IMG/VR virus record: IMGVR_UViG_3300037042_003932
Coordinates: 79,879 to 143,878 of that record
Strand: one strand, 5' to 3'
Origin: a virus
Length of the DNA: 64,000 nt
This document shows positions 46,979 through 54,663 of the stretch, one piece after another (the stretch's first letter is position 1; every line of letters begins with the position of its first letter). A program made the position numbers and the translations under genes. The notes beneath the pieces are model-generated. The model saw only the letters and a list, made by a program, of their open reading frames with translations. It searched no databases and had not been told where the DNA came from.

Positions 46979-47593
46979 CTACCTCATCAAAAACGTCAGT
47001 AAATCCTGTGACCAATCCTCGAGTCTTACGAAGATCAACGGGCTGTTTAGGTCTCCTAACCTAGACCAACCAACTGCTTCGAACTTAGGGGATGCAGAGG
47101 TCACCATGTCACCAGGAGCTGAGAACGAATACACGATACCAAAGTGCGTATCAGCTGGTTTCCGTATAAATCCTCGGAGAGTAAAGTCCAGTATGTCTGG
47201 AGCAGAACGCGAAGGGTCTGTGTTCTTTCGCGTAGCTCCTGAAAACCGAATGCTCTCGTTCATCCGGTTCAACGCGGATATCTTGAAGAGCTGCTCCCCT
47301 TGGTTGTCTTCGGGTTTGACACTCCCACCTACGCCTATGGACAATTTACGCAGTAACGACGCATCAGTTCGCCGGTACACGAGAATCTCAGGCTTCCAGC
47401 CGTACACGTACGAGTAGGTGACCACTTGGAGAACTGATACGTCGTTATCGGCTTCTTCTTGGGGCACGAACACCGAAGCCGATCTGATGTCACTCAGCAG
47501 GTTCTTGTACGCGGGAGTGTACGCTTGTAAACCCAGAAGCTTATACGGCTGAAGGATCTTTGCCGGGAACACCAAGACCTCGTTGTTCTCCAT
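46979..47593 (-). CDS. Nudix-fold phosphoesterase-like protein (COG4112-type), degenerate
   Basis: F....A..D....QVV.Y, ILVYRR, KLSIGVGG, HFGIVY, LEDWSQ; Nudix box not intact. Confidence 0.7.
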   Translation of the reverse strand: MENNEVLVFPAKILQPYKLLGLQAYTPAYKNLLSDIRSASVFVPQEEADNDVSVLQVVTYSYVYGWKPEILVYRRTDASLLRKLSIGVGGSVKPEDNQGEQLFKISALNRMNESIRFSGATRKNTDPSRSAPDILDFTLRGFIRKPADTHFGIVYSFSAPGDMVTSASPKFEAVGWSRLGDLNSPLIFVRLEDWSQDLLTFLMR

Positions 47594-47876
47594 TCTCTTT
47601 CTCCTCTTGCTCCACACGAGCGAGAATCCCCTTGAGGATCGTCTGAGTTAAGATGTTAGGATACATTATAGCTTCTGCCTTGTCGCAAAAATGCTCATTA
47701 CACCCTGCAGGTCTTTCCGACCTGGGCAACTCACAGCCATCATCTTTCTGGTGGGGACAAGGACCCCAAAGGTGATCATCTGGATACTTCTTGGCCAATT
47801 CGTCGATATCCCTCCAATAACGTTCACAACACTCACCGCACCTAATAGGACAAACGATTCCGTGTTCTTGGGTCAT
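47541..47876 (-). CDS. YkgJ-like CxxxCxxCC cysteine-cluster protein
   Basis: CPIRCGECC..CP....C.....RP..C...FC; RBS AAGGAG. Confidence 0.7.
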   Translation of the reverse strand: MTQEHGIVCPIRCGECCERYWRDIDELAKKYPDDHLWGPCPHQKDDGCELPRSERPAGCNEHFCDKAEAIMYPNILTQTILKGILARVEQEEKENGEQRGLGVPGKDPSAV

Positions 47877-47884
47877 AGGGCTCC

Positions 47885-48112
47885 TTACATCAGATTGGAG
47901 TATAGGTAGCACAATTCGTTTAGAACAGACCTGAAAGAAAGCCAGCGCAAAAGAGGGATAGACTTGGAGCGTAGAAGCACACAAGTGTTGTTGTTGTTAC
48001 ATAGAGAGTTCGCGCATAACCTGTCAAAAGTTATGTTACGATCTGTTACTGACGCTGCTAGGGGTACTATCAGGCGCAAAGACGTTCTCGTGTCACCATT
48101 CACGAATGCCAT
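47885..48112 (-). CDS. Small array paralog
   Basis: C-terminal FRSVLNELCYLYSNL; RBS GAGG. Confidence 0.55.
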   Translation of the reverse strand: MAFVNGDTRTSLRLIVPLAASVTDRNITFDRLCANSLCNNNNTCVLLRSKSIPLLRWLSFRSVLNELCYLYSNLM

Positions 48113-48314
48113 GCCGTACCTCTTCGTTGTTCCATACCGTGATAAAACAATAGAAACAACACTCCGAAGCCTTCCTCCGTTCTTTCCAAGGGACTGTTGC
48201 CAAGAGACAGGACAATCCGTTTTTCGCTGTTTGACGAAAAGCAGCATCAAAGGTTTCTCGGTACCACTTAACGCCGGTTCGAGCTGACAGTCCGTCGTAC
48301 ACGTGTCGTCGCAT
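48093..48314 (-). CDS. Small array protein (weak motif match)
   Basis: RBS GGAGG; 73 aa. Confidence 0.5.
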   Translation of the reverse strand: MRRHVYDGLSARTGVKWYRETFDAAFRQTAKNGLSCLLATVPWKERRKASECCFYCFITVWNNEEVRHGIREW

Positions 48315-48540
48315 AACAAAACCTCCATAGGGAATTTTCGAATTCTACTTGTATGTCATCTGCCCTCCGACGAAAGATTTCATCTCGGGTATTTACAGCT
48401 GTTTCGAGACTAAGCCTCTGTGGCTTACTTAACTTTGCTCCGTTACACCAACACGAGTAATACGCGATGGTGTACATCCAGCTGTAAAGATTTATGTTTG
48501 GGTCTGAGCTGAATCCGGAGTTCACGCCTATGATATCCAT
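48268..48540 (-). CDS. Small array protein (weak motif match)
   Basis: FRRRADDIQVEF. Confidence 0.45.
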   Translation of the reverse strand: MDIIGVNSGFSSDPNINLYSWMYTIAYYSCWCNGAKLSKPQRLSLETAVNTRDEIFRRRADDIQVEFENSLWRFCYATTRVRRTVSSNRR

Positions 48541-48836
48541 TGTTTGTTCTTGGGATTTTGGATCATTCGGTTAGTGTTGGCCTTGTAGATTCGTTCGAGG
48601 CATACGACGGACATCTCGAAGCGCATGAGTGTTGAATCTCTGAAATTACGCGCCTGGGCTATGCAATACGCCCCGTCAAAGTAAAACCAGAATGGCCGCG
48701 TACGCCGCAGATAATGACTATTATCCACGAAGTAGTGATGAAAGTTAGCAACCTTGAGTCTAAATGACTCTTGGGCTTTTTGTGAGTTCTTTCCGGTGTA
48801 CAAGCCTGCGTATGTGCTTGAGTTCACGTCCTCCAC
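48528..48836 (-). CDS. Small array paralog
   Basis: FEMSVVCLERIY. Confidence 0.5.
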   Translation of the reverse strand: MEDVNSSTYAGLYTGKNSQKAQESFRLKVANFHHYFVDNSHYLRRTRPFWFYFDGAYCIAQARNFRDSTLMRFEMSVVCLERIYKANTNRMIQNPKNKQWIS

Positions 48837-49090
48837 CTTTTGTCGTTAGGATCAAAGCTGAGCCTGTTCAAGTTCGTACCGAAGTTCTGGGTCTGATAGC
48901 GTATGGTGCTACGAAAGTGGGTGTCGCGTACCCTAGTGTAGGAGCTCATACTTTGAATCGCCCACGCGTGGTACGAATCAGAGATGCCTGTTTTTAACAG
49001 AGATCCCTGGAGTTCTTTTGAGAAATACTTCTTGTTAAAAGTGTGACACTTAACCTCTTCAAACTCAGGTCTTTCAAAGCGTTTCACCAT
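48824..49090 (-). CDS. Small array paralog (AW subfamily)
   Basis: EVKCHTFNKKY..EL..AWAIQS..Y...R..HFRSTIRY aligns with the next two ORFs. Confidence 0.6.
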   Translation of the reverse strand: MVKRFERPEFEEVKCHTFNKKYFSKELQGSLLKTGISDSYHAWAIQSMSSYTRVRDTHFRSTIRYQTQNFGTNLNRLSFDPNDKRWRT

Positions 49091-49368
49091 GCAGGCCCCA
49101 AACCGTTAAAGCGGGCTTCAAAGCCCGGCCTATTCACATAGGACACATAATTCAGACGCAAGTAATGAACGACCCTATTGAACTGAATAGAGCGCGATCC
49201 TACGTAAGAGAGTACGCTGTGGACTACCCACGCGGGAGTACCAATACCAAAAGTGAGTGGATCATTAATCCTAGGCAAATGCCAGAGAAGCTCGTGTGCG
49301 TAATAGTTTTGGTTATGCGCGTGCAATTTTACTTTATCAAGCTCAGTTCGACCTTTGTGATGTGTCAT
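49084..49368 (-). CDS. Small array paralog (AW subfamily)
   Basis: KVKLHAHNQNY..EL..AWVVHS..Y...R..QFNRVVHYLRLNY. Confidence 0.6.
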   Translation of the reverse strand: MTHHKGRTELDKVKLHAHNQNYYAHELLWHLPRINDPLTFGIGTPAWVVHSVLSYVGSRSIQFNRVVHYLRLNYVSYVNRPGFEARFNGLGPAW

Positions 49369-49640
49369 TAAGACCCTCCATTAGCTAGCATGTCCGTGTA
49401 GCTCTGATTTTGATAATATGTAACGTCACGAAAGTAGCGAATACGGGACTCAACGTGTGACTTTATCCTCGTTAAGGACCATGCTCGAGACTCTGGTACA
49501 TTGGGCGTTGCGTATAAACACCAGAAAATCTCTACCATAGAAAAACGCTTACTACTCGTATACGATCTGACATGGCCAATCTCTTGGCTGAGTGTGTAAG
49601 CACTGAGGTTATTACGCGCTTGGATGTGTGAGTACGTCAT
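49368..49640 (-). CDS. Small array paralog (AW subfamily)
   Basis: AWSL...SH...R..YFRDVTYYQNQSYTDM. Confidence 0.6.
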   Translation of the reverse strand: MTYSHIQARNNLSAYTLSQEIGHVRSYTSSKRFSMVEIFWCLYATPNVPESRAWSLTRIKSHVESRIRYFRDVTYYQNQSYTDMLANGGS

Positions 49641-49894
49641 GGGAGCTCTTTTAATAAAGGAACAAACGCAGATGCCGTTCTGTTATGACTCATAAGCATG
49701 TAAATGAATTTGAGATTCGTTACGAGACTACTAAAATCGTACGCTGTCTTCTGCTGAGCCCATACCATTCGTTCTATATTTCTTCTGTACAGCTGAGCAG
49801 AATACCATCGCTGTTGCTCGAATAACTCACCTGACGTACGAATGACAAGCCTGGTGAGCTCGTGATACCTGGTGTACTTATCCATGGTGATCAT
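49637..49894 (-). CDS. Small array paralog
   Basis: FSSLVTNLKFIYMLM; RBS AGGAGG; start trimmed from the track ORF. Confidence 0.6.
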   Translation of the reverse strand: MITMDKYTRYHELTRLVIRTSGELFEQQRWYSAQLYRRNIERMVWAQQKTAYDFSSLVTNLKFIYMLMSHNRTASAFVPLLKELP

Positions 49895-49970
49895 GCTTCC
49901 TCCTGTTGCACGATATGTGAATGCCATTACGCTCTTATACCCAGCCCTACTATTATTTCGGAGGTCACGG

Positions 49971-50606
49971 ATGAACAAAGAAGAACGAAGAGTAGCTATA
50001 AAACTAGAACTCTTAGAGGCTCGAGCCAAACAGCAATATAATCTTCGCATACGCCATAAGGAGGATGTGTTCGGGTGGCAACTACTGAAATGGATTGTGC
50101 TATTCCTAACGTTCTTCCAGATCGATCTGGTCGAGAGAGCCTGGGTAACGATTGGGCGAACAGTGTACGTGCCCAGGCGATATGACCCCAAACAAAGGAA
50201 GGTCTACCGTTATGGAGACATTCCTTTTGAAGACTACTGCACCCTCTCGCATGAGATCGAACATGTCAAACAATACGAGAGGTTTGGAGTCATCCTCTTC
50301 CTCCTAATCTATATCTTCCCGTTCTTTCCAATAGGGCTCGCATATGGCCGATACTATCTGGAAAGGCAAGCATACCTGGCGGGAGTCATCGCGGCGAAGA
50401 GTATCGATTATACTAGGTGGGCTCGGCAGCGCTATCTGAAGACACCGGTTCCTCCACTGGAGAAGGCGATTCAGGCGTGCTCGACGTCTCCGTGGTATCT
50501 GTGGCCATGGCCGTTTCCGAAGTCGGTACGTCTGTGGTTTGGCAGGGCTCTTCTTCGCGAGGAAGAACGATACCGCAATGTTCTTCAATCCTCTCGAGAC
50601 GCGTGA
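49971..50606 (+). CDS. Zincin-type metallopeptidase-like membrane protein (DUF4157-like)
   Basis: WVTIGRTVY, LSHEIEHVKQY, LERQAY; RBS GGAGG. Confidence 0.7.
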   Translation: MNKEERRVAIKLELLEARAKQQYNLRIRHKEDVFGWQLLKWIVLFLTFFQIDLVERAWVTIGRTVYVPRRYDPKQRKVYRYGDIPFEDYCTLSHEIEHVKQYERFGVILFLLIYIFPFFPIGLAYGRYYLERQAYLAGVIAAKSIDYTRWARQRYLKTPVPPLEKAIQACSTSPWYLWPWPFPKSVRLWFGRALLREEERYRNVLQSSRDA

Positions 50607-50766
50607 AGATATTGTCCAAGCACCGCCCGATCTCCTCGACTAGCTTATTCGTGTTTTCCTTGAGCTTCGCGTTGATAACGATGAGCTCTTTGTTCATGTC
50701 CATCAGGTCTTTTTTCATCTCTGGTGCAATTTTAGAGGGAGCACGTACGATTCTTCTTCTAGACAT
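50413..50766 (-). CDS. Coiled-coil protein with disordered acidic Ser/Thr tail
   Basis: RBS AAGGAG; heptads; tail overlaps the antisense peptidase gene. Confidence 0.55.
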   Translation of the reverse strand: MSRRRIVRAPSKIAPEMKKDLMDMNKELIVINAKLKENTNKLVEEIGRCLDNIFTRLERIEEHCGIVLPREEEPCQTTDVPTSETAMATDTTETSSTPESPSPVEEPVSSDSAAEPT

Positions 50767-50779
50767 TTTTTTCTCCTTG

Positions 50780-51007
50780 TCACATTACGCTGTAAATGGT
50801 GCGTAGGTACTTTGCCACGACTCGGAAATCTACTCTACTTATTTCGCTCCTTCCGTGAACCTTATTCAGGTCTTTAGGTTGTAACAGCAGATAGAAGGTC
50901 GCAGTTCGAAGACCTACTCCTTTTGTTAGGTGCTGCATAAGTACTGAGATCACGTACTTATCTCCATACTCATGTGTTCCTGTAATATATATGCTCGGTT
51001 TCAGCAA
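50780..51007 (-). CDS. Small array paralog
   Basis: FRVVAKYLRTIYSVM. Confidence 0.55.
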   Translation of the reverse strand: MLKPSIYITGTHEYGDKYVISVLMQHLTKGVGLRTATFYLLLQPKDLNKVHGRSEISRVDFRVVAKYLRTIYSVM

Positions 51008-51233
51008 CGATATAGCCCATCCTTAACATCTGGCATAGTAAGCCCAGATAGTCAAATACGTCCTTATGGGTCGTGTGGTATGTTGGGATGTACGTGTAGC
51101 ATCTATAAGAAATGAACTTCAGATAATGCGAGAATCTTTTTGCGTTCATCGTCGTGGCTAATACGACAGCTTGGTTGAGGTTTCCTGAGGTTACTAAGTA
51201 AAAATCTTTGTCTTCGAAGATGCTAGTGTCCAT
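50970..51233 (-). CDS. Small array paralog
   Basis: TAATG coupling, RBS GGAGG; LGLLCQMLRMGY. Confidence 0.55.
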   Translation of the reverse strand: MDTSIFEDKDFYLVTSGNLNQAVVLATTMNAKRFSHYLKFISYRCYTYIPTYHTTHKDVFDYLGLLCQMLRMGYIVAETEHIYYRNT

Positions 51234-51418
51234 TAATCCAACCTCCACCAACCAAAGGGTATCTCTGTGATTCCCTTGAGTGCCCTTACTTCTTCATCGC
51301 GCAGCACACATATGCGATGATCTATAGGATATATACCCCATCGATTAAGCCACAACGTGTGGCCCCACCTCTGTCTTCTGCATTTCGTGAGTGACTTGTA
51401 TCTTTCAGCTGCTGGCAT
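51233..51418 (-). CDS. Small Trp/Arg-rich protein, WWRLD family copy 2
   Basis: Y+.LT.CRR.RW...EE..A...P..WWRLD. Confidence 0.6.
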   Translation of the reverse strand: MPAAERYKSLTKCRRQRWGHTLWLNRWGIYPIDHRICVLRDEEVRALKGITEIPFGWWRLD

Positions 51419-51427
51419 GACATCCTT

Positions 51428-51616
51428 TCAATCCAACCTCCACCAGTGTAAAGGTCTCTCGAGTAATGCTTGGGTTGCTTGGGTTTCTTCGATCATCCAA
51501 AGTTTAATAGAGGTGTTTTTATTGACTACGACACGCGACCGTACAACCTTCAACATAAAGTCCCATCTATTTCGGCGACACCAGGTCAACGTCCTATACA
51601 GATCTGCTGCGGTCAT
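51428..51616 (-). CDS. Small Trp/Arg-rich protein, WWRLD family copy 1
   Basis: Paralog of the adjacent ORF; RBS AAAGGA. Confidence 0.6.
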   Translation of the reverse strand: MTAADLYRTLTWCRRNRWDFMLKVVRSRVVVNKNTSIKLWMIEETQATQALLERPLHWWRLD

Positions 51617-51842
51617 GGTGTCCTTTCTCCATACGGTGAATCCCAAAGGCTGTGAGGGCTTTGGCTGTCTCTATGAACCTTTGGTCTTGGCGTTCCGACC
51701 GAAGAGTATCTGTGAGCCTGTTACGGATTAAATCAGCATAGATGTGATAAAAGGTCAGAGCAGCGCAAATCCAACAGTTGGATGCATACGTCATCATGTT
51801 GATGGGGTGTGCGTAAAAGGTAACGTCAAATGGGGTACGCAT
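51594..51842 (-). CDS. Small array paralog
   Basis: WICAALTFYHIYADL; RBS GGAG. Confidence 0.45.
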   Translation of the reverse strand: MRTPFDVTFYAHPINMMTYASNCWICAALTFYHIYADLIRNRLTDTLRSERQDQRFIETAKALTAFGIHRMEKGHHDRSRSV

Positions 51843-52026
51843 TACGAAACTCCATAGCGACTGAGACAAAGTAATAATGGAACATAGTGTGGTTGCGCAC
51901 TTTTCGATGCTCCTCTCCCGCTGCTTCTTCGCGATACATCAGCTTGAACACACCATTTCCCAACCCGACAGACGCTGCAATAAGGCTAGTTAAGCGCATA
52001 CGCTTAATCTCTTCATGGTCATACAC
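51826..52026 (-). CDS. Small array paralog
   Basis: FVSVAMEFRNAY. Confidence 0.5.
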   Translation of the reverse strand: MYDHEEIKRMRLTSLIAASVGLGNGVFKLMYREEAAGEEHRKVRNHTMFHYYFVSVAMEFRNAYPI

Positions 52027-52270
52027 GCCTAAAACTCTCCATAGCGCTGTAGTGACTGCGTAGTTGATTCATCAAGAACTTCGCATGGTTCAGGATGCTG
52101 GTATGATAGAAGTGACTAGGATACATATTCTGATGGTTCCGTGACAGGAGAGAGACATACTTCTCAAAGAAATCCCGTACAAAGCGTACATTCATGTCGT
52201 GTGCGCTTTTACAGTAACGATCACTGCTTATGATTGTTTTGTGGTTGATCACGTACGTCGTGGACAGCAT
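52019..52270 (-). CDS. Small array paralog
   Basis: AKFLMNQLRSHYSAMESFRR; RBS GAGGAGG. Confidence 0.6.
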   Translation of the reverse strand: MLSTTYVINHKTIISSDRYCKSAHDMNVRFVRDFFEKYVSLLSRNHQNMYPSHFYHTSILNHAKFLMNQLRSHYSAMESFRRV

Positions 52271-52493
52271 TCAATACCTCCTCGTATGTGTGAAACAAGA
52301 ACCGAATAGCCGAAGTCAAGTTGTACCCCACTAACCTGTCGTAGAATGCGATGGGTTGGTGAATCTCATAGCCCTTCTCGAAATAGTTATAAAGATTACT
52401 CTGACTTATGGCGTACTTTGTGTACCAGTACGTGTACGCCCCCTTTACGCAATCCAGTATATGCTCTGTGTGAGCTATCGTTTCTCCCGTCAT
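52221..52493 (-). CDS. Small array paralog
   Basis: LTSAIRFLFHTYEEV; ATGA coupling. Confidence 0.55.
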   Translation of the reverse strand: MTGETIAHTEHILDCVKGAYTYWYTKYAISQSNLYNYFEKGYEIHQPIAFYDRLVGYNLTSAIRFLFHTYEEVLNAVHDVRDQPQNNHKQ

Positions 52494-52774
52494 GGCAAGA
52501 GTCCAAAGGTCAGTGTGTTCCTATAGAACGAGCGCAAGAGCCAACACGTTCGGTCAAAAGCTTCGTTGCGTTTCTTGTAAATGAACCTGTGGTTGAGCCG
52601 GGGCATCACACTCCACACATCAAGAAGACCCACACCCAATCGGATTCGACACCTCAGTTCGTGGTCCTCGTCATAGAGTTCGTTCATACGAGATACTGCG
52701 TTGGTGCTATTAACATTATTCAAGGGAACCATCCGACTTATGCGGTGTTCATCTACCGTAGGATGTATTTGCAA
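52490..52774 (-). CDS. Small array paralog
   Basis: FDRTCWLLRSFY. Confidence 0.5.
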   Translation of the reverse strand: MQIHPTVDEHRISRMVPLNNVNSTNAVSRMNELYDEDHELRCRIRLGVGLLDVWSVMPRLNHRFIYKKRNEAFDRTCWLLRSFYRNTLTFGLLP

Positions 52775-53030
52775 AGAAGTTACCCTTCCCTTCTAGGTAC
52801 GTGTAATAACGCCAATGTACCATTACGATGTGTTTGAACCTCTCTCGAGTCAGCTCGTTTGTACCAGTTGCGTAGTTCCAAAAACGAAAACCTCCGCTCA
52901 CAGCTACGCGAAGATAACTGTCGTATTCCATGCGGACAGCTCCATGCAACTGTGAGGTTTTATTCGAGGTTTTCGCCATGAAAGTGACAGCTGCTGTTTC
53001 GTTATAGGGTCGAGGGACAAGCGTGTGCAT
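52749..53030 (-). CDS. Small array paralog
   Basis: FKHIVMVHWRYYTYL; start MHTLVP after AAAGGA. Confidence 0.55.
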   Translation of the reverse strand: MHTLVPRPYNETAAVTFMAKTSNKTSQLHGAVRMEYDSYLRVAVSGGFRFWNYATGTNELTRERFKHIVMVHWRYYTYLEGKGNFFANTSYGR

Positions 53031-53044
53031 ACTCGGTCCTTTCT

Positions 53045-53305
53045 TTACGAGGTAAAGATTGCTAGCTCCCCGGCGTTTATGCGTCGCACGAATTGGGCAT
53101 AACGTATGTCGAAATGCGTATCCCAATAGAAGCGCCGCATATGAATGTTGATAACTCTTGACCAACCTCTCCAAACATTAGAAGGCATAAGATCGTCGGT
53201 GTTGTAAGGATCAGCGGCATAACTAATGAAATAGTTAAATAGGACCTCGCGCTGTTCACGCAATATACGGCTGTCCCGGCACAATTCCGTCAATAAGTTC
53301 ATCAC
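53045..53305 (-). CDS. Small array paralog (DS subfamily)
   Basis: MNLL...CRDSRILR..R..LF; RBS GAGGAG. Confidence 0.6.
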   Translation of the reverse strand: MMNLLTELCRDSRILREQREVLFNYFISYAADPYNTDDLMPSNVWRGWSRVINIHMRRFYWDTHFDIRYAQFVRRINAGELAIFTS

Positions 53306-53517
53306 TCCTCTCTCCTCCTCTTATATGCCTCAACCTCATAAGCATCATGCATATGCTCGGTAACATGCCGCAACTTATTTAAAAGGGTTAAGTAGCGGGG
53401 CGGCATACCCACTGGCCTCAAGGGGTAACGAAGGAGATAGACAAGATGTTGAAATAATACATACCTTAGATCTTGTACTCGTTTACTATCGTCGCATGCG
53501 AGCTTCAAAAAGTTCAT
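53302..53517 (-). CDS. Small array paralog (DS subfamily)
   Basis: MNFL..ACDDS....R..LF..LRHVTEHMHDAY; RBS GAGGAGG. Confidence 0.6.
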   Translation of the reverse strand: MNFLKLACDDSKRVQDLRYVLFQHLVYLLRYPLRPVGMPPRYLTLLNKLRHVTEHMHDAYEVEAYKRRREE

Positions 53518-53740
53518 TACGCCTCCTCACGTTATCTCGCCGCATCAGCGTTTCTATTTCTCTGTAATGTGCCTGCATGCCACACGTGATTTGAAGGAAT
53601 CTTCCTTCGATATACTTATGCGACATGATGGCTGCGCATCGATGGTCGTACTTTGCGTGGTAAAGTAAATTCTCAAACAGCTGCTGTTTCTTGTCTCTCA
53701 GGGTGCAGCTATCCTCATAGATGTATGTTAAAGTGTTCAT
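53486..53740 (-). CDS. Small array paralog (DS subfamily)
   Basis: MNTL...YEDSCTLR....LF..FLQITCGMQAHYREIETL.RR. Confidence 0.6.
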   Translation of the reverse strand: MNTLTYIYEDSCTLRDKKQQLFENLLYHAKYDHRCAAIMSHKYIEGRFLQITCGMQAHYREIETLMRRDNVRRRNELFEARMRR

Positions 53741-53954
53741 AGCTTCTACGCCTACTCAGAGTTTCCATGTGCTCATACGCCGCCTTCAGGTTAGAAACTA
53801 CCATCGCAAATTGATCATCGACGTTGTCCTCGGATAAGAAATATGTGTGAACCGGTGATCCTTCTGAAGAACGAATGAAGTTCTCAAATCTCGTGGCGTT
53901 CTGGGTGTACAACAAGACACAGGCGTTGTGGGCGTATACCAAGAAAATGCTCAT
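53715..53954 (-). CDS. Small array paralog, recent duplicate B
   Basis: FAMVVSNLKAAYEHMETLSRRR; RBS AAGGAG. Confidence 0.7.
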   Translation of the reverse strand: MSIFLVYAHNACVLLYTQNATRFENFIRSSEGSPVHTYFLSEDNVDDQFAMVVSNLKAAYEHMETLSRRRSYEHFNIHL

Positions 53955-53967
53955 ACAATCTCGCTCC

Positions 53968-54192
53968 TTAATGTTTATAGTTTCTACGCCTACTCAGAGT
54001 TTCCATGTGCACATACGCCGCCTTCAGGTTAGAAACTACCAGTGCAAATCGGTCTTCACATGCTTCATACGATAAGAAGTACACGTGAACAGACGAGCCT
54101 TTTGCACAAAGGATAAAGTTTCTAAAGCGCGTAGCGTTGTGCCCCGTGTACGAGACACAAGAGTTATGAGCGTATATCATGAAAATGCTCAT
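53968..54192 (-). CDS. Small array paralog, recent duplicate A
   Basis: FALVVSNLKAAYVHMETLSRRR; RBS AAAGGAG. Confidence 0.7.
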   Translation of the reverse strand: MSIFMIYAHNSCVSYTGHNATRFRNFILCAKGSSVHVYFLSYEACEDRFALVVSNLKAAYVHMETLSRRRNYKH

Positions 54193-54455
54193 GCAGACTC
54201 GCTCCTTTCTGTGCTCATATATGTGTAGGCATCTTCAAGATCTTGAAACACACACTGGTAATATTCCAATTGGAAAGAACTAGACGCAAGAGATACGCGG
54301 GTAGATTGGGGTCTACGGGAATACGAACAGATGACAGCGAACTTCAACTTCATTTGTGCCCGAATGCGTCGGCTATCGTATACCGCAGCTCCCAAAGATT
54401 GTTCAAGCTCTTGAAAATCTCTTAACTTCTCTCGTGTATGCGACGAAATAGTCAT
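54189..54455 (-). CDS. Small array paralog (DS subfamily)
   Basis: YDSRRIR....KF..YQCVFQDLEDAYTYM; start MTISSH after AGGAG. Confidence 0.6.
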   Translation of the reverse strand: MTISSHTREKLRDFQELEQSLGAAVYDSRRIRAQMKLKFAVICSYSRRPQSTRVSLASSSFQLEYYQCVFQDLEDAYTYMSTERSESA

Positions 54456-54663
54456 ATGCACTCTCCTGATCTGCCACAGCGCAGCTAAACCAATAGGCAA
54501 GATGGTTGGTGACTATCTGAATCTCATACGCCTTGGGGGCGTTGGGAATCCTCATAACATACCGAATGCCTTCAAATGACTGAGCCACTGACGTCGTGGC
54601 TTGTCGCACAGACAATACGCCACGTAACGCGGTCGTGTCGTCCCTGGGTATGAAATAACCCAT
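54403..54663 (-). CDS. Small array paralog
   Basis: FSCAVADQESAYDYF; RBS AGGAGG. Confidence 0.6.
   Translation of the reverse strand: MGYFIPRDDTTALRGVLSVRQATTSVAQSFEGIRYVMRIPNAPKAYEIQIVTNHLAYWFSCAVADQESAYDYFVAYTREVKRFSRA

Follow-up and report, generated by a model that had tools for sequence, protein, structure and literature searches.

Bases 47885–54663 of a 64,000-nt stretch of phage DNA (the window, meaning the whole stretch analysed; bases 79879–143878 of the IMG/VR virus record IMGVR_UViG_3300037042_003932) carry on the minus strand a gap-free chain of co-oriented small open reading frames (ORFs), here called the array. The record is linear, 143,878 bp long and 80% complete by the CheckV estimate; it comes from an uncultured phage with a genome of 144 kb or more. 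A preliminary description of this DNA had reported about 23 such ORFs of 65–100 aa that look unrelated except for a common C-terminal signature, F-x2-[VIL]-x3-[LM]-x3-Y-x2-[ML]. The array is real, its number and size range requiring revision: after start choice it comprises 26 minus-strand genes of 61–117 aa, plus one plus-strand gene (Table 1; genes are named below by their lower coordinate).

Architecture and coding status of the array

A Shine-Dalgarno (SD)-like site was found at 21 of the 26 chosen starts, compared with 26% of all start triplets in the region, and 20 of the 25 gene junctions are either overlaps or gaps of no more than 14 nt, in agreement with the earlier remark that most of the ORFs have their own ribosome-binding site or overlap a neighbour. 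The single large gap in the chain (518 nt) is occupied by the plus-strand gene. A scan for sigma-70-like promoters and terminators detected no excess of either inside the array. Together, the SD sites, the tight or overlapping junctions and the lack of promoter or terminator excess fit one long translationally coupled transcript, that is, a polycistronic operon of 26 small genes.

Measured against the long genes of the genome, codon usage scores weakly throughout the array, and relatives were therefore sought to test coding status. A profile of the clearest sub-family was searched against Logan contigs, and three of these (L005, L007 and L008) carry the syntenic region at 77–96% DNA identity. 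Almost every minus-strand array ORF has an open orthologue in these contigs, with a ratio of non-synonymous to synonymous substitution rates (dN/dS, denoted w) of 0.07–0.5. In contrast, the plus-strand shadow ORFs gave w > 1 in four of five cases tested (0.45–0.70 in the fifth). The pooled ratio was 0.21–0.27 for the array versus 0.10–0.15 for the flanking genes. Judged by these ratios, the array ORFs are real genes under purifying selection that is about twice as relaxed as in the flanks. The opposite reading, in which the region is non-coding and its chain of ORFs is due to chance or decay, could draw on the weak codon-usage score; it is effectively refuted by the pooled w, by called-frame ratios far under 1 set against shadow-frame ratios that mostly exceed 1, by the enrichment of SD sites, and by the ORFs being open in four genomes.

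The same comparison settled one gene call. The ORF at 47885–48328, previously listed as a single long gene, gains only non-synonymous changes in its 5' part, where the overlapping frame 48093–48314 has a w of 0.07; the region thus holds two real genes, 47885–48112 and 48093–48314.

Gene order is collinear in all four genomes, and copy number differs only in the families described below. Relative to L008, the most distant relative, the median best-match identity was 44% for the array and 81% for the flanks, and only 7 of 25 genes kept at least 70% identity; by this measure, most array genes are replaced there by very divergent alleles. Because the orthologues are under purifying selection, the term 'hypervariable', applied to these genes in the preliminary description, overstates their variability.

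Paralogue families and the C-terminal motif

All-vs-all BLASTP within the window delineated three families of neighbouring genes: A (48824, 49084, 49368), B (51233, 51428) and C (53045, 53302, 53486, 53715, 53968). The neighbouring sub-families recognised earlier at 53.0–54.5 kb and 48.8–49.6 kb correspond to C and A, respectively. When the four genomes were pooled, 54189 joined family C (six copies) and the genes fell into 20 clusters in total; 48528 is probably a fourth family A member. Across the four genomes the copy number is 3–7 for C, 1–3 for A and 1–2 for B (uncalled copies of B included). From this comparison, the three tandem families change copy number between close relatives by unequal recombination, in line with the serial local duplication, or gene accordion, that had been proposed. 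The youngest pair, 53715/53968, is a 238-bp tandem duplication, the nucleotide identity of which is 67% over the N-terminal 44 codons and 87% over the C-terminal 30 codons. The latter have almost no synonymous change, which suggests a recent gene conversion across the motif helix or else that this part is chimeric.

Some array genes of the relatives are absent from the window (L007:10884–11135, L005:10704–10955, L008:4750–5025 and L008:5285–5521). They represent a seventh family C subtype starting with 'MCGLQQAL' and two L008-only singletons, one of which (L008_4750) has a significant motif match, FMSVTTTLATFYAKL.

The strict regular expression of the signature matched 5 of 25 array ORFs, where shuffles predicted 0.018, and 1 of 714 control ORFs. 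Its core, [FY]..[VILM]...[LM]...Y, matched 8 of 25 (0.37 expected) and 5 of 714 controls. The motif is therefore enriched over shuffled sequences and control ORFs alike; per residue it is about 35 times commoner in the array than in the genome's other ORFs. Since the preliminary description had derived the motif from these same sequences, the regular-expression and seed tests are partly circular, and non-circular tests were added. A seed position-specific scoring matrix (PSSM) built from the regular-expression-positive clusters was run on the 15 non-seed clusters against column-shuffled nulls (Fisher p = 0.005); the individually significant non-seeds were 52019, 54403 and one L008-only gene. 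The 15 columns of highest information content in family C, picked without regard to the motif (the family C block), proved to be the motif itself, xxxF..V...[LM]...Y. Scored on the 19 other clusters, this block reached a Fisher p of 3.6e-5; six of them were individually below p = 0.05, and for most of the others its best window was exactly the previously marked site. A control block from the N-terminal part of family C gave p = 0.09.

The motif Tyr, the sole invariant internal residue in 25 family C sequences, persists in 11 of 13 clusters, even in orthologues of 40–50% identity. Look-alikes in 52490, 52221, 51826 and 50970 were indistinguishable from chance. By these sequence tests, the motif is supported in 10 of the 26 genes when only the non-circular ones are counted, and in about 15 when regular-expression and leave-one-out seeds are included. 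The earlier proposal that some 23 ORFs share the signature thus stands as to its enrichment and its extension beyond family C, and is not borne out as to its reach, at least six genes lacking the motif. Neither 48093 nor 48268, which had been taken as weak matches, shows it. A home-made one-occurrence-per-sequence expectation-maximisation motif finder overfitted on the array and returned no usable motif.

The terminal codons of some genes double as the SD of the next gene (51233–51265 and 51428–51460; 53302–53330 and 53517–53545). The WWRLD ending of family B is encoded as ...GGTGGAGGTTGGATT, the WWRLD codons of 51233 giving the next gene's SD, GGAGGT, and the Arg-rich tails of 53486 and 53302 are encoded as GAGGAGG. 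As gene-end codons serve as SD in these places, part of the C-terminal conservation may lie at the nucleotide level.

Array proteins are basic (median isoelectric point (pI) 9.4, 76% above 8.5; long genes, 5.9; flanking small proteins, acidic) and rich in R, Y, F, H, W and C, as had been noticed. Two proteins were modelled by AlphaFold2 with family alignments. The model of 53968 (family C) has helices at residues 3–15 and 17–30, a loop and a helix at 42–73 (predicted local distance difference test (pLDDT) score 65); that of 49084 (family A) has a helix at 8–30, a loop and a helix at 46–78 (pLDDT 57). The motif helix is the most confident part of both. The suggested two-helix scaffold agrees with the two models insofar as each shows N-terminal helix, loop and long C-terminal motif helix, at low confidence. 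By simple helical geometry, the conserved positions i, i+3, i+7, i+11 and i+14 fall on one helix face. This stripe had been interpreted as a docking face, but a buried hairpin core fits it at least as well.

Profile searches with the 27 array proteins gave no PHROGs hit at E ≤ 0.01 and no significant Pfam-A match (the sole hit, KxDL on 50413 at E = 0.0035, is below its cut-off); the best E-values against the PDB were 0.16 (family C alignment A3) and 0.55 (family A alignment A5). Neither a helix-turn-helix (HTH) domain, including the aca type, nor a known anti-defence family was detected in or beside the array. As first described, therefore, the proteins match no described family: Pfam, PHROGs, PDB sequences and BFVD folds returned nothing. 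An exhaustive hidden Markov model (HMM) search of 1.84 billion representatives yielded only 10 true family C members, all of about 70–100 aa, and family A was represented by 10 proteins in 5.8 billion; as far as these searches reach, the families are confined to this phage clade. P0021, a protein of 200 aa matched by the family C profile, was rejected because it is a repeat protein of low complexity. The structure neighbours from the ESM Atlas (ParE/RelE and others) were disregarded given a model pLDDT of 0.49. No description of the array family, nor of DUF5661 (see below), was found in the literature.

Gene inventory and genomic setting

Table 1. Genes of the array in order of transcription, with the opposite-strand gene at its position. 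Motif p-values are from the scan named; w is dN/dS against the orthologues in related contigs.
Coordinates	Strand	Gene product	Motif and other evidence	w
54403..54663	-	86 aa, array's first gene	motif FSCAVADQESAYDYF; p = 0.03 (seed PSSM), p = 0.007 (family C block); SD AGGAGG	0.10–0.29 (L005, L007, L008 orthologues)
54189..54455	-	88 aa, divergent family C member	motif YQCVFQDLEDAYTYM; joins C once relatives are pooled	0.44–0.54
53968..54192	-	74 aa, family C	motif FALVVSNLKAAYVHM; BLASTP 66% identity to 53715, E 2e-35	
53715..53954	-	79 aa, family C, youngest duplicate of 53968	238-bp direct repeat	
53486..53740	-	84 aa, family C	BLASTP and family alignment	
53302..53517	-	71 aa, family C	BLASTP and family alignment; SD within the upstream gene's Arg codons	
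53045..53302	-	85 aa, family C	BLASTP and family alignment	
52749..53030	-	93 aa	motif-like FKHIVMVHWRYYTYL; p = 0.003 (family C block), not significant with seed PSSM	0.46 (L005)
52490..52774	-	94 aa	look-alike FDRTCWLLRSFYRNT, not significant (p = 0.31–0.33, both scans)	0.00–0.07
52221..52493	-	90 aa	no supported motif	0.30–0.54
52019..52270	-	83 aa	motif AKFLMNQLRSHYSAM; p = 0.01 (seed PSSM), p = 0.04 (family C block); C-terminus kept in a 48%-identical orthologue	
51826..52026	-	66 aa	look-alike FVSVAMEFRNAY, not significant (p = 0.11, family C block)	0.34–0.55
51594..51842	-	82 aa	no motif (both scans)	0.11–0.26
51428..51616	-	62 aa, family B, ends WWRLD	no motif; BLASTP to 51233, E 4e-10	
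51233..51418	-	61 aa, family B	no motif	
50970..51233	-	87 aa, weakly linked to family C	family C HMM E = 0.003 (0.011 for the best of the composition-matched shuffles)	
50780..51007	-	75 aa	motif FRVVAKYLRTIYSVM at extreme C-terminus; p = 0.0005 (seed PSSM test), p = 0.012 (family C block)	0.12–0.15
50413..50766	-	117 aa, in the chain but outside the family	no motif; acidic, pI 4.7	0.20–0.35
49971..50606	+	about 211 aa, opposite strand, within the array	HEIEH motif	0.09–0.11 (L005, L008)
49637..49894	-	85 aa	motif FSSLVTNLKFIYMLM; strict regular-expression match; leave-one-out p = 0.001	0.10–0.21
49368..49640	-	90 aa, family A	motif region FRDVTYYQNQSYTDM; BLASTP to 48824, E 3e-4	
49084..49368	-	94 aa, family A	motif FNRVVHYLRLNYVSY; BLASTP to 48824, E 1.5e-10	
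48824..49090	-	88 aa, family A	BLASTP and family alignment	
48528..48827	-	99 aa, probably divergent family A member	common tail [ND]Px[ND]K[QR]W; top inter-cluster 15-mer score, 39; hhalign 45 columns, score 15.7, inside null range	
48268..48540	-	90 aa	no motif	0.15 (L005)
48093..48314	-	73 aa	no motif; coding frame here	0.07 (L005; nd 3, sd 11)
47885..48112	-	75 aa, array's last gene	motif FRSVLNELCYLYSNL; strict regular-expression match; leave-one-out p = 0.0065	0.09 for the short form vs 0.29 for the 147-aa form

The plus-strand gene was missing from the preliminary inventory. Its ORF spans 49872–50606, with a probable start at 49971, and is also called as a 211-aa gene in L005. With w about 0.1 it is, on this comparison, a real and strongly conserved gene. 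Its product combines the HEIEH sequence, an HExxH motif, with hydrophobic segments, and Atlas feature matches link it to widespread viral clusters of ~200-aa proteins, one of which has PF13699 (eCIS_core/DUF4157) in 21% of its members. Its 3' end overlaps that of 50413–50766 by about 190 nt; the protein encoded by the latter has a coiled-coil-like N-terminal half and a low-complexity tail rich in Thr, Ser, Pro and Glu.

Identifiable genes near the array are those for ThyX, a DHH phosphoesterase, a helicase, an SLT lysozyme and a 730-aa protein with DUF5661; the array adjoins the nucleotide-metabolism genes (ThyX, DHH phosphoesterase). The helicase has distant matches only (<35% identity), in phages of Gram-positive hosts. 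Megablast of the array against GenBank phages gave no DNA-level match, a search for related loci with the neighbouring 730-aa protein gave partial matches only, and no tRNA was found in the 64-kb window. Directly downstream of the array, the minus-strand gene 47541–47876 codes for a 111-aa acidic protein in which a CxxxCxxCC cluster is accompanied by more Cys and His residues. No Pfam family matched it, and its residue pattern indicates that it is probably metal-binding.

Origin and possible roles of the array proteins

The overall best explanation, to which we assign a probability of about 0.5, is a conserved operon of small genes in which those with the motif share a common ancestor and the products are binder proteins. 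Slightly better than even odds can be given to the descent of most motif-bearing genes from one ancestral helix-loop-helix gene. Such a gene would have duplicated, and the F-x2-[VIL]-x3-[LM]-x3-Y-x2-[ML] stripe on one face of the C-terminal helix would form the hairpin core or a pairing seam. The stripe would have to be kept for folding or pairing of the hairpin, the remainder of each protein having diverged past recognition. As to role, the proteins may, tentatively and at somewhat less than an even chance, be small binders that engage host proteins or nucleic acids stoichiometrically and serve host takeover or counter-defence; array genes would then be gained, lost and allelically replaced in step with host differences.

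Several observations weigh against this explanation, some of them favouring an arrangement in which unrelated small-gene families lie side by side and the stripe arose by convergence, imposed by the needs of a short hairpin or by one common partner. The all-vs-all hhalign comparison between clusters, local and global, gave real scores equal to the reversed-profile null, and hence no support for full-length homology between clusters. HMMs do not cross cluster boundaries: iteration from A, B and C recruited no other cluster above composition-matched shuffles, except for 50970 and 54189, both to C. The 'L' position of the motif is normally Q in family A, which has F..V..YQNQNY instead of F..V...L...Y, and 48093, 48268, 51233, 51428, 51594 and 50413 have no motif. 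To these must be added the partial circularity of the regular-expression and seed tests, an unbiased pairwise 15-mer statistic that was only modestly raised (z = 2.06, p about 0.013), the low confidence of the AlphaFold2 models, and the absence of a fold match in BFVD by Foldseek (best E 2.1, with a low-confidence query model). What convergence explains poorly is the per-residue excess of the motif over the genome's other ORFs, many helical proteins among them, and the recurrence of specific F and Y residues, beyond mere hydrophobicity, with constant spacing and invariably within the C-terminal third. Moreover, fast-diverging proteins of 60–100 aa are expected to lose detectable full-length similarity. 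We consider a set of unrelated families unlikely, if a contender to be taken seriously. By sequence comparison, the array combines three or more families with singletons, and only part of it is demonstrably related.

Two further proposals concern what the proteins do. They might be packaged and ejected internal proteins, with the C-terminal helix as a shared targeting or docking signal, as in the phage T4 precedent (PMC3012670). Small size, basic charge, one short motif common to otherwise dissimilar proteins, a motif Tyr that does not exchange with Phe, and a position directly downstream of the large DUF5661 protein (a suspected processed virion polyprotein) would all suit this role. However, the signal of T4 sits at the N-terminus and is cleaved off, and neither an N-terminal peptide nor a cleavage site common to the array clusters was seen; the array's neighbours, moreover, are nucleotide-metabolism genes, ThyX and DHH phosphoesterase, and not clear head genes. 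Packaging seems quite improbable. It is also doubtful, if a shade less so, that these small proteins bind nucleic acids, as regulators of transcription or RNA or as a coat on DNA, and serve the phage's own expression programme instead of host antagonism: the high pI and the enrichment in Arg and aromatic residues would be expected of them, but neither an HTH nor another nucleic-acid-binding family was detected with Pfam or PHROGs, and close relatives do not usually differ by gain, loss and replacement of core regulators. A more speculative variant, suggested by analogy and likewise doubtful, is that the stripe and its invariant Tyr are more than a folding core and form an address which all these proteins share and a single phage or host hub recognises (such as capsid, ejection apparatus or shared partner subunit). 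If so, the array would supply exchangeable effectors that one route delivers or activates, with the C-terminal helix playing the part of the T4 capsid targeting sequence.

Among known systems, the T4 internal proteins IPI, IPII and IPIII and their polymorphic relatives, which are injected anti-restriction factors, share only a capsid targeting sequence (PMC3012670). The array resembles this locus in that related phages vary in their complement of small basic proteins, which have one short peptide in common, and at least one T4 member (IPI*) is a counter-defence protein (PMC3012670). It differs in the shared element: in T4 this is a capsid targeting sequence at the N-terminus, removed by the prohead protease, and in the array it is a C-terminal amphipathic helix. 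The two sets of proteins also have no sequence similarity.

Dense blocks of small ORFs also occur in other large phages, as in the host-takeover module of SPO1 and the pre-early genes of T5. The likeness lies in dense, small, clade-specific and fast-evolving genes with one direction of transcription; extensive internal paralogy of the kind seen here is not known from such blocks. In gene accordions of the poxvirus type, the copy number of host-interaction genes grows and shrinks by tandem recombination, and the array shares this copy-number change. It departs from them in that only three sub-families vary and that, except for 53715/53968, the copies are old and diverged. By itself the array changes no concept. 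It adds a clade-restricted family with a defined motif, F..V...L...Y..M, and an invariant Tyr, copy-number change documented between close relatives, and clean evidence of selection. Together these make the array a usable case for asking whether such sets of small genes serve in counter-defence, in host takeover or as packaged effectors.

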